The translations under genes and the position numbers were made by a program. DNA of 20,000 nucleotides from an uncultured virus (IMG/VR IMGVR_UViG_3300042866_001241) (lineage: Duplodnaviria; Heunggongvirae; Uroviricota; Caudoviricetes): the IMG/VR virus record IMGVR_UViG_3300042866_001241; one strand, written 5' to 3'. Positions 16,650 to 18,854 of this stretch are shown here, piece after piece (the stretch's first letter is position 1; every line of letters begins with the position of its first letter). A model generated the notes under the pieces. It was not told the DNA's origin, searched no databases, and was given only the letters and a program-made list of their open reading frames with translations.

Positions 16650-16999
16650 GCGTTGTTGAAGTCTTCAAGGCATACGGAGCACAGGTCGGCGGGCTTGAAG
16701 GTATCGAACTGATCGCCTTCAAGTATCCTTCCGGTAGCGAGTCTGCGCCTATCGTAGTTGCTCACTACCCCGCAGTGTTCGCTACCTGCCCAATGTATCT
16801 TGCCTTGCTTGGGTAGCATGTCTGCGATCTTGAAGGTGTCGAGGTCAAAGGTTGGATGGCTGAAGCCCCCGGCTTCCAACACCTCGGCAATGGTAGGGGG
16901 CTTCTCTGCCTCCATCCGTTCGTAGGCAGCAGAGCCTTCCTCCGGTGTCCACGGCCACTCGTAGTAGTGGAGGTTGGATAGGATGAGGCGGGGCTTCAT
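16646..16999 (-). CDS. Hypothetical protein (117 aa, MKPRLILSNL...) with H..C...CxxC Zn-binding-like C-terminus
   Basis: Start at 16999 overlaps the MTase stop (ATGA). KIHW....HCG...LCSVC. Confidence 0.68.
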   Translation of the reverse strand: MKPRLILSNLHYYEWPWTPEEGSAAYERMEAEKPPTIAEVLEAGGFSHPTFDLDTFKIADMLPKQGKIHWAGSEHCGVVSNYDRRRLATGRILEGDQFDTFKPADLCSVCLEDFNNA

Positions 17000-18555
17000 C
17001 GGCTCACTCGTTTGATCTGTTCGCCGATGTAGCGCACCACGGGAACGGCCCAGGAGTTGCCGAGGGCTTTGTATCGCGGCCCGTCCGGGCTGTTGGGCTT
17101 GCCCCTCCAAGGGATGTCCGTGTATCCGTCCGGAAAGCCTTGGAGCCGTTCGCACTCCACCGGGGTCAGGCGGCGGACCTGCATACCCGACTTGGCGTAC
17201 AGGCTACCATTGTCCGCGCTGGCATTGCCATTCCACTTGGTTCCGTATGCTGCTGTTAGCGCATCCGCCGTGTCGCGGAATGGAGTCGCCAGCACTTCAT
17301 CCTTCGGAACAACCGCTACGGCATGCGAATGTGCTGACTGAAGGGTAAAAGTGGGGTCTCCTTCATTACCAATCCCAACACCCTCACGAGTGCTGTTCGA
17401 TGTCTCGGCACCGCGTAGCCCAAGCTGCGTGTTGATTGGATACGCCAACACCTGATCGTTCGCCGTTGCCAGCGTCAGGCTTTGGTCCTCACTCACCAGC
17501 GGGCCTTTGCCGCCGCCCTCCTTGCCTTCGCGCATGCGGACGAGCATCGGAGGCTCGTGGCTGTGCAACGTGTGGCACGGGTCGCCTGGCTGTGGGTTGC
17601 TCCGGTTAGCCTTGGATGTGACTTGAGCGGGGTCGAAGGCGACATACGTGGTCTGATGCGTACCCGGCTCCGCTGACAATGCCCCGGCCACATCCTGCTC
17701 GCGCACCTCTTCACGCTGGTTCTGAACGAAGGCGATTGGAGCTTCGTGGTTGCAGGTGAGCGACGGCGAGCCGTCGCTCACCACTTCGGCGTTCGCTTGG
17801 CCGTGCGCCATGACCGTTAGTCCTCCATCGCAGTCGAAGTCCGTCCCAAGGCCACCGCCTCCAGTGCTGCGTGAAGGGATGGTGGGAGCGACTTCCCCCT
17901 TGCTTCGGCTCGGCGCAGAATGCCAGCGGCTGCTTTTGATGATAGGTAGTAGCGCGTCGGCAGCGGCCCATCTTCCAGCACCTCCCTTAGCGAGCACGAA
18001 GACCCGCTTCCGTCGCTGGGCCAGGCCGATGTGCTGGGCGTCCATAACCCGCCACGCGCAACACCGGGCTGGTCCATCAACCACACCCGCGTCTGCCCAT
18101 CCGTTCGCAGGCTCATGGATGGCGGTATCACTTCCGCATAGGCCGCCCAAGAAGGCACCGAAGGCGTTGTCGCGGGTTGAGAGCACTCCGGGGACGTTTT
18201 CCCACAGGATCCAGGCTGGTTCTGTTCCAGCAGTTGATCGAAGATGGTCGATTGCATTGGCGAGGAGGACGAATTGAAGTGTGAGGTTGCCCCTGTCATC
18301 GGCCAGGGATTGCCGTAGGCCGGCCACGCTGAACGCTTGGCACGGTGTTCCTCCGCAGAGCATGTCAGCGTCCACGATCCACGGCTCGTCCTTGAGCTTT
18401 GTAAAGTCGCCATGGAGCGGAACGTCCGGGTAGTGGTGCTGAAGCACAGCACGGGGGAAGGCTTCTATCTCGGAGAAGGCCAGCGCCTTCCAGCCGAGTG
18501 GTTCAAAGGCTACCGAAGCGGCCTCGATGCCGGAGCATACGGATAGGAACTTCAT
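16996..18555 (-). CDS. C5 DNA cytosine methyltransferase (519 aa) with extended repetitive variable region
   Basis: Motif I SVCSGIEA, IV GGTPCQAFS, VI WENVPG, VIII QRRKRVF, IX RRLTPVECERLQGFPD, X RYKALGNS. Start MKFLS at 18555. Confidence 0.95.
   Translation of the reverse strand: MKFLSVCSGIEAASVAFEPLGWKALAFSEIEAFPRAVLQHHYPDVPLHGDFTKLKDEPWIVDADMLCGGTPCQAFSVAGLRQSLADDRGNLTLQFVLLANAIDHLRSTAGTEPAWILWENVPGVLSTRDNAFGAFLGGLCGSDTAIHEPANGWADAGVVDGPARCCAWRVMDAQHIGLAQRRKRVFVLAKGGAGRWAAADALLPIIKSSRWHSAPSRSKGEVAPTIPSRSTGGGGLGTDFDCDGGLTVMAHGQANAEVVSDGSPSLTCNHEAPIAFVQNQREEVREQDVAGALSAEPGTHQTTYVAFDPAQVTSKANRSNPQPGDPCHTLHSHEPPMLVRMREGKEGGGKGPLVSEDQSLTLATANDQVLAYPINTQLGLRGAETSNSTREGVGIGNEGDPTFTLQSAHSHAVAVVPKDEVLATPFRDTADALTAAYGTKWNGNASADNGSLYAKSGMQVRRLTPVECERLQGFPDGYTDIPWRGKPNSPDGPRYKALGNSWAVPVVRYIGEQIKRVSR
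17817..18257 (-). CDS. Nested +1-frame gene within the MTase; M.EcoHK31I beta-polypeptide-like accessory subunit (146 aa from MQSTIF)
   Basis: Stop-free same-strand frame. It carries GKTSPECS, GGLWTPSTSAWPSDGSGSSCSLREVLE and YYLSSKAAAGILRRAEARGKSLP..L..ALE, the pattern of alternative-frame C5-MTase partner polypeptides. Confidence 0.7.
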   Translation of the reverse strand: MQSTIFDQLLEQNQPGSCGKTSPECSQPATTPSVPSWAAYAEVIPPSMSLRTDGQTRVWLMDQPGVARGGLWTPSTSAWPSDGSGSSCSLREVLEDGPLPTRYYLSSKAAAGILRRAEARGKSLPPSLHAALEAVALGRTSTAMED

Positions 18556-18854
18556 CGGCTCATGTCTTGGGTGCTCCATGCCTCAACTTCGATGGTACGC
18601 CCGTCATCGAAGGCCCTCCACTTCTTGTCATGCCCGATGTACCCACGGGAGATGACGTAGTACGGATGGCCGGTCGGGGCTTGGTCGGTTCTCCACTGGT
18701 TCTTGAGGGATAGGGAGTAGATGGTGAAGATGTGGAAGGAGTTGGTGAGGATGAACAGGGCTACGAGGATGTAGAGTACAATGTCCCTGTTGCGTAGCTG
18801 CCTCTTGTGGCGCTCCTGCCGCTCTTTCTGTGCTGCGCGTGCTGTCTCGTTCAT
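18552..18854 (-). CDS. Single-TM membrane protein (100 aa, MNETARAAQK...)
   Basis: Basic N-terminus, then TM IVLYILVALFILTNSFHIFTIYSL. ATGA coupling on both sides. Confidence 0.68.
   Translation of the reverse strand: MNETARAAQKERQERHKRQLRNRDIVLYILVALFILTNSFHIFTIYSLSLKNQWRTDQAPTGHPYYVISRGYIGHDKKWRAFDDGRTIEVEAWSTQDMSR

Follow-up and report, generated by a model that had tools for sequence, protein, structure and literature searches.

Among the characterised C5 cytosine DNA methyltransferases (MTases), M.EcoHK31I is treated, together with M.AquI, as one of two exceptions, and M.AquI is a C5-MTase of two polypeptides (available text of PMC3404938). In EcoHK31I the coding sequence of the small β chain lies entirely inside the α gene, in a different frame, and both chains are needed; α comprises motifs I-VIII and X with the target recognition domain (TRD), and β comprises motif IX (PMC2836561, PMC3404938, in the parts of both that are available). 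N-terminal deletions of this β chain weaken the association (PMC2836561). Here, we examine a 20,000-nucleotide stretch of DNA from an uncultured virus of the Caudoviricetes (IMG/VR record IMGVR_UViG_3300042866_001241; the whole stretch is called the window below), in which a C5-MTase gene, α, contains a second open reading frame (ORF), β, that is probably a gene of the same kind. A preliminary description had proposed that the locus is dual-coded, with a β of the M.EcoHK31I kind nested in the +1 frame, and this proposal agrees with the conservation among relatives, a frame-specific selection, fused homologues, a model of the complex and the register of published EcoHK31I primers.

The α gene (16996-18579, minus strand, as all α and β features given here; 527 amino acids in the ORF list) scores 128.8 bits against PF00145 (curated cut-off 22; E 4e-37), and also matches TIGR00675 and phrog_116. 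The PF00145 match together with motifs IV (PCQ, 18337-18345), VI (ENV, within ENVPG, 18187-18201) and VIII (QxRxR, here QRRKR, 18004-18018) identifies it as a C5 cytosine DNA methyltransferase. Motif IX (RRLTPVECERLQGFP, 17131-17175) and motif X (GNS, 17053-17061) are retained, as described previously, and motifs I-X all lie in a single frame. The β ORF is in the +1 frame relative to α (17817-18257, 146 amino acids) and runs from the ATG at 18257 to a TAA at 17817-17819. Its frame is free of stops from about 18464, and the first start-type codon is a GTG at 18452, from which the listed ORF (17817-18452) counts 211 amino acids. We recovered this ORF as first described, open to 18452 and with the peptide SLREVLEDGPLPTRYYLSSKAAAGILRRAEARGKSLPPSLHAALEAVA present letter for letter. 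It crosses α motif VI and motif VIII, and then continues for about 40 codons more.

Three parts can be distinguished in β. Residues 1-7 (MQSTIFD, 18237-18257) contain the conserved start and a clamp-binding-like pentapeptide (QSTIF, 18240-18254), residues 8-54 (18096-18236) form a low-complexity linker that overlies α motif VI and its surroundings, and residues 55-135 (17853-18095) form a conserved core (QTRVWL...CSLREVLE...YYLSSKAAAGILRRAEARGKSLPPSLHAAL), the predicted α-binding part, which holds 18 of the 21 invariant columns of the β alignment. The predicted docking surface on α is made of residues 145-225 (17905-18147), that is the VI-to-VIII stretch and the post-VIII segment, and the same DNA also encodes β residues ~37-118. 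The subclade of the window carries two additional β codons (SDGSGSSCSL).

EcoHK31I and the window are alike in that the small chain lies wholly within the gene of the large chain, on the same strand and in frame +1. Read in the β frame, the EcoHK31I primers (PMC2836561, available supplement) encode MQNSS, IRWSNS, GMAFRGE, EEECTLSQVL, LSQVLETC and VLETCAPL, while one base upstream they read YGVSWR, TPQRRRRVY and RRVYIVASL, which correspond to motif VIII. The register is that of the window, with C(T/S)L..VLE placed over the end of motif VIII; in the window SSCSLREVLE lies over QRRKRVFVLA. Because the +1 relation and the register are the same and the core motif is closely similar, we place the window locus in the EcoHK31I kind. 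The comparison with M.EcoHK31I β that had been suggested earlier therefore holds for register and core motif, within the primer-covered stretches. The two systems differ in context, as EcoHK31I is a restriction-modification system, whereas the window gene belongs to a phage replication module. A further likeness is found in phage P1 Dmt (AF234172), whose C5-MTase half has the same nested +1 ORF (locus L084, 2168-2659, 157 amino acids from MQLT), an ORF absent from the 23 features that the record gives for this region. Unlike the window gene, Dmt is fused to a Dam-type adenine methylase, and the nested ORF begins with MQLTTNG, in which the F of the N-terminal motif is missing.

The explanation that we favour, with a probability of roughly 0.8, is a genuine overlapping gene pair, in which β is a small accessory subunit of α and a homologue of M.EcoHK31I β. 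In this arrangement, β would be translated from the internal ATG inside the α gene, its first residues would form a short conserved motif tied to the core by a flexible linker, and the core (~55-135) is predicted to dock on α, bridging the VI-VIII insert, the post-VIII segment and motif IX. The reading builds on the observed ORF, its conservation, the selection on the +1 frame and the homology to domains fused in frame; we infer the binding of β to α from the structure models, and β may be needed for full methylase activity by analogy with EcoHK31I.

The nested ORF is conserved in a broad set of relatives. A tblastn search with the C-half of β, of the kind that the preliminary description had proposed, matched 127 GenBank phage records, always under a methylase gene, and 532 plasmid records match as well; most of these are from Escherichia, and their annotation, as for P1 dmt, is a Dam-family methyltransferase. 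The frames were verified in 85, 80 and 10 loci only, not across all the contigs and records counted. In a set selected by likeness to β (80 viral contigs of at least 591 that exist, together with the window and four GenBank phages), the β frame is α +1 in 85 of 85 loci and nested in 83, these open frames being so partly by construction. A bacterial set, also selected by likeness to β (80 genome contigs from many phyla, of at least 494 that exist), gives α +1 in all 80 loci, with 78 nested. The same relation was found in 10 of 10 annotated GenBank phages (Sinorhizobium NV1.1.1, MW202711, Bcep22, P1, CobraSix, JK004, Mycobacterium Dove, Streptococcus Javan105, Ruminococcus NatCom_28274 and Vibrio K453), and none of these records annotates β, a gene that annotation commonly overlooks. 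Three of the phages (Sinorhizobium NV1.1.1, MW202711 and Bcep22) carry the matching ORF, with an ATG and a stop of its own, in +1 relative to an annotated MTase coding sequence that is not interrupted.

A sample selected by α corrects for the way in which the β-selected loci were chosen. It contains 72 loci, of which 49 carry β in the +1 frame and 17 lack a nested ORF but have a homologous domain in frame after motif X; the rest are two loci with a +1 ORF where the N-terminal part of α is unmatched, two with tandem MTases and two without the region. Two viral contigs (L143, L145) have tandem or overlapping related MTase genes in different frames, and the nested ORF belongs to one of them.

Selection is visible on both frames over ~140 codons, as judged from a codon alignment of 67 α genes (from 77, after removal of those at least 85% identical). 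The third-position pairwise identity is 0.659 within the overlap and 0.376 outside it (Mann-Whitney p = 2e-27), which is the suppressed synonymous variation anticipated for a dual-coded gene, and the excess is present in every amino-acid conservation stratum. The identity is 0.86-0.90 under the C-half of β, and 0.570 for the N-half alone (p = 1e-13). Among isolated single-base differences that alter α, those that are silent in the +1 frame are favoured, with descriptive odds, obtained from pair counts, of 7.8 in the N-half and 10.9 in the C-half, compared with 1.3 and 1.7 for pseudo +1 frames placed up- and downstream of the overlap as controls. The residues 91-130 of β are more conserved than those of α (0.78, 0.72, 0.90 and 0.56 versus 0.65, 0.64, 0.67 and 0.24), and over motif VI α is the more conserved of the two. 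In the linker (β 8-54) α is again more conserved, yet the +1 frame is selected there, with the N-half odds given above.

A homologous domain is fused to the MTase in the 17 relatives that lack a nested ORF (L101-L104, L108, L110, L112-L117, L125, L129, L132-L134). These are low-GC, single-chain enzymes with a β-like core after motif X, behind which come a conserved IEKRSRVQKRGRFS stretch and an acidic linker, and many of them also have a QxSLF-type motif at the terminus. A profile made from the in-frame fused domains only recovers +1 ORFs in 49 loci (median E 1.6e-7), and the nested and fused forms are in complementary distribution. Since the homologous domain is fused in single-chain relatives, a Rosetta-stone argument assigns β to the enzyme. 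In 11 of the 17 fused relatives the equivalent +1 stretch contains 4-13 stops, and at the sequence level these relatives serve as a natural control for the nested frame.

β has no match in Pfam, PHROG or NCBIfam, and a search of the ESM Atlas with β returned only unnamed, mostly viral clusters. An all-against-all profile search with β gave 2832 representative proteins at E ≤ 0.001, none of them seen with a functional name. In a separate search for β homologues the named ones are 'hypothetical protein', except for the fused P0073, a site-specific DNA-cytosine methylase. Many of the β-profile matches are chains of 280-680 amino acids that begin with β and continue through a variable region into motifs IX-X; when 24 such chains were scanned for PF00145, 18 had a C-terminal match, one an N-terminal match and five none.

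The M.AquI-type split (I-VIII / IX-X) is absent from the window, in which α by itself holds all motifs (I-X) and β contributes a module and not half of the fold. It is found in relatives: in L006, L071 and L186, motifs I-VIII are in one ORF and β, TRD, IX and X are in an overlapping +1 ORF, and P0084 also has this layout. The two ORFs of L071 (2095-3060 and 2372-3838) overlap by 230 codons. The proteins P0084-P0112 belong to the same variant layout, where α ends behind motif VIII and the β frame continues into a variable region and motifs IX-X. P0100 (680 amino acids) is a β-TRD-IX chain whose motifs IX and X are separated by an inserted HNH_3 endonuclease domain.

To obtain a model of the complex we used an α alignment (47 rows) and a β alignment (34 rows), both user-made and unpaired. 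The ipSAE of the α-β complex is 0.87, 0.87 and 0.88 in three runs, against 0.00 for the best of three controls; in the calibration of this score, which holds only roughly for user alignments, the mark is reached by 116 of 157 solved complexes and by 2 of 215 mismatched pairs. At least 62% of the contacts recur between runs, with a partner confidence (pLDDT) of at least 63, and the predicted interface joins β 34-135 with α 145-225 and 463-479 (motif IX). The best-defined contacts form an antiparallel ladder between α 161-170 and β 55-63 (~18070-18097), in which the residue numbers sum to ~225; at the centre of the ladder, α 166/167 meets β 59, coded by the same nucleotides. Covariation through shared codons cannot explain this ladder, because the two alignments were unpaired. 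A further predicted contact joins β V93/L94 with α E475/L478. Modelled alone, β has a mean pLDDT of 60.5, with 47-53 across residues 1-60 and only two C-terminal helices well defined, which fits a chain that folds on its partner. The two-chain model proposed in the preliminary description thus speaks for a heterodimeric phage MTase, although the rationale given there, a division of the fold between the two chains, did not survive the following comparisons, which make β an extra module.

The place of β relative to the MTase fold was examined with a model of the fused relative L102 (mean pLDDT 64.9). Full-length M.HhaI (9-327) and M.HaeIII (1-328) align to its residues 1-324 with Z 12.6-13.3, and these residues correspond to motifs I-X. 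The β-like domain (~327-434, pLDDT 62-84) and a disordered tail lie beyond, in a remainder past residue 324 that was barely tested against solved structures. Since solved MTases align to motifs I-X, without a β-like domain, β is most simply described as an accessory module and not as a missing piece of the fold, and the 'different split' suggested before is not what we find. It had also been suggested that β supplies an L..VLE..YYLS segment that is absent from the main frame. We considered β as this canonical post-motif-VIII segment and rejected the assignment, on account of the complete fold at 1-324 and of the searches with β. With the filters disabled and E raised to 1000, the β profile still gives no match to E. 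coli Dcm. Among the PDB sequences it finds no solved C5-MTase (one unrelated match at E 1.9), and β does not match PF00145. Moreover, α has its own post-VIII segment (DPAxVLFE), which is conserved, also in relatives without the nested ORF.

The absence of a family annotation for β, and the fact that solved MTase folds are fully covered by α, would be compatible with a real β protein whose role lies outside methylation, such as a regulator or an anti-defence factor that shares the DNA. We consider this improbable, although it is the alternative that survives best. The homologous domain is fused to the MTase in 17 relatives, in a distribution complementary to that of the nested form, the α-β complex model passes its controls, and EcoHK31I needs both chains (available parts of PMC2836561 and PMC3404938).

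With β taken as an accessory subunit, the next point is how it is translated. An ATG equivalent to 18257 is present in 60 of 67 loci, with one at a nearby position in six more, and in 48 of 67 there is a β-frame stop within 8 codons upstream of the start. GGAG, GAGG or AGGA occurs 5-16 nucleotides upstream of the β ATG in 25 of 67 loci, against 7.9% of background windows, a comparison that is confounded by the coding of α; the window ATG has no Shine-Dalgarno sequence at this distance. The α third positions under β codons 1-7 are nearly fixed (n = 60: T 60, A 57, T 48/C 12, C 57, T 49, T 54, A 51), and relax from β codon 8 on. From these sequences, β most likely starts at its own conserved ATG (18257). 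The missing Shine-Dalgarno sequence could instead mean that the β frame is read only through ribosomal frameshifting, giving an α(N)-β(C) fusion and no free 146-residue protein, and three proteins (P0039, P0048, P0146) indeed run from α motifs I-VI straight into the β frame. The DNA of these three has other frame relations, and therefore they are no evidence of slippage. The conservation of the ATG, the first seven β codons being the most constrained of the N-half, and the selection of the +1 frame from its start all argue against frameshifting, and in EcoHK31I activity is abolished when the β start codons are removed (PMC2836561, available text). We regard this alternative as unlikely, marginally more so than a role of β outside methylation.

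It is less likely still that the open +1 frame is a by-product of MTase constraint, G+C content or a nucleic-acid element, with no β protein at all. When synonymous codons were resampled, keeping the MTase protein and the codon usage, the +1 frame of the window was free of stops over 146 codons in 7.6% of 20,000 trials, and part of the conservation of the β N-half (GKTSP over WENVPG) follows from α motif VI; both are what a by-product would give. However, the frame is open in every one of the 67 non-redundant loci (median P per locus 0.09), which confirms the open frame foreseen for homologous genes, and the chance falls to 0.2% for Streptococcus Javan105 (39% GC; P 0.002), 1.6% for P1 and 2.3% for Ruminococcus NatCom_28274. 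The open frame thus goes beyond chance because the relatives, and not the window alone, carry the same +1 ORF. The stops in the same stretch of the fused relatives, the selection that acts on the +1 frame in particular (odds 7.8-10.9; control regions 1.3-1.7) and the +1 ORFs found in 49 loci by the profile of fused domains equally contradict a by-product. Finally, two compensating indels, from sequencing or mutation, that scrambled an ordinary single-chain MTase, an idea to which the matches of the β C-half to the MTase genes of 127 phage records might have lent support, have a negligible probability and were rejected, because the phage matches are likewise in the +1 frame of an uninterrupted MTase ORF, in three intact annotated phage MTases, and independent runs give identical contigs.

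A number of points weigh against the reading of β as a conserved accessory subunit. The open frame of the window alone is not beyond chance (P 0.076), its ATG is the one noted above without a Shine-Dalgarno sequence, and the β-selected loci carry their open frames partly by construction. The loci are related by descent, and the substitution odds are pair counts among related sequences, not independent events. The comparison with EcoHK31I β covers primer-covered stretches only, ~45 residues (1-5 and ~35-75 by deletion names), and the two systems differ in the distribution of motifs, since in EcoHK31I α is without motif IX and β carries it (PMC2836561, PMC3404938, available parts), whereas the window α keeps IX and X. 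On the structural side, the ipSAE is a measure of model confidence whose calibration is rough for user alignments, and β modelled alone is poorly defined.

The conserved N-terminus of β suggests a tentative lead on its function. It reads MQLT(M/I/L)FD in most relatives and MQSTIFD in the window, and the family consensus at the motif is QLTMF. The pattern Q[LFIMV]x[LIMV]F is found in the first 15 residues of 47 of 67 β ORFs and in none of the 67 in the remaining ~125 residues. The window QSTIF fails this strict pattern (S at position 2), but fits the looser Qxx[LIMVF][FLYW], which is found in 55 of 67. Distant relatives have QDSLF, QTSLF, QFDLF or QLDLF, at a varying distance from the next motif. 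Among 14 tails of fused relatives that were examined, nine contain QMSIF, QISLF, QLNIF, QLSLF, QLTLF or QVSLF, mostly in the last 10 residues and after an unalignable linker, and where the chain ends in QLSLF, QISLF or QMSIF the preceding tail has a pLDDT below 50. Bacterial beta-clamp-binding motifs follow the consensus Q-L-x-L-F and mostly lie at a terminus, and their Q1 and F5 are essential (PMC4549789, available text); the window QSTIF is unlike this consensus in having no L at position 2.

As the motif occurs at opposite termini in the nested and fused layouts, the small subunit may tether the methylase to DnaN. β could then be a clamp adaptor, in which the N-terminal MQ(L/S)T(M/I/L)F binds the host DnaN and the core holds the C5-MTase, a possibility that we put forward, on the motif sequences, as less likely than not. 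Such a phage methylase would travel with the replication fork and methylate newly made DNA ahead of host restriction. The mode of action would resemble that of DNMT1, which carries a PCNA-binding motif (PMC9690074, available text), both being cytosine methylases with a short terminal clamp-binding motif on a flexible tether; this is a resemblance, and membership is not claimed. EcoHK31I, whose β starts MQNSS, and P1 are without a QLxLF-like motif, which counts against the clamp lead. In a literature search, which most subscription journals lay outside, no paper was found that connects DNA methylases of bacteria or phages with the clamp.

The EcoHK31I kind is already known, and what is added here is a widespread, conserved and unannotated nested gene. 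For long overlapping genes on the same strand in phages and bacteria, documentation seldom goes beyond an open frame, and this nested arrangement is far commoner than the two textbook exceptions (at least 591 viral and at least 494 bacterial genome contigs, 127 phage and 532 plasmid records). We did not find a family-wide nested gene described in a literature search that left most subscription journals and REBASE outside. One practical consequence is that expressing, deleting or recoding these methylase genes unknowingly alters a second protein. The QLxLF-like terminal motif offers a testable idea on how phage methylases keep pace with replication; if true, the clamp adaptor would be a bacterial and phage counterpart of DNMT1-PCNA, from a gene hidden inside a methylase gene, and would apply to hundreds of phages and prophages.

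The genes around α include an adjacent helicase gene and, further along, a Holliday-junction resolvase and a pyrophosphatase, and therefore the locus is part of a phage replication module. In a PHROGs scan of 10 neighbouring ORFs, three had a named function, one belonged to a family of unknown function and six had no family. Near-identical DNA is present in several lake-water metagenome runs. Contigs from other runs equal the window without difference or gap (X2 over 17149-18581; X4 over 17149-17891 and 17865-18581), and thus the frame structure is not an assembly slip. A short X4 contig (73 letters, with six other differences) has a base inserted behind 17899 and one lost at 17904, which makes a frame patch of five bases within the overlap, and probably stems from a related strain. 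No DNA relative from an isolated phage spans at least 80% of the window α gene.

The opposite strand of the window is also open across the β region, for 175 codons (17750-18277, plus strand), with no sign seen of anything beyond an effect of G+C content. The window α departs, within residues 198-225 (17905-17988), from four near-invariant post-VIII residues (P205, E213, R219 and D220, replaced by A, I, W and H), and β keeps its consensus in the same DNA.

Additional arrangements were observed in single relatives. In L024 (1189-3642), an insert of ~340 residues follows closely on motif IV of the MTase relative. It matches Hint and LAGLIDADG weakly, in both cases under the curated Pfam cut-offs, and is probably an intein at the catalytic cysteine region; L052 and L088 have a similar gap in the MTase match. 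In Mycobacterium phage Dove (L239, 1505-2623), the annotation divides the MTase between two genes, gp107 and gp108, and gp107 contains a +1 ORF of 159 codons that starts over motif IV and has QLDLF near its start.

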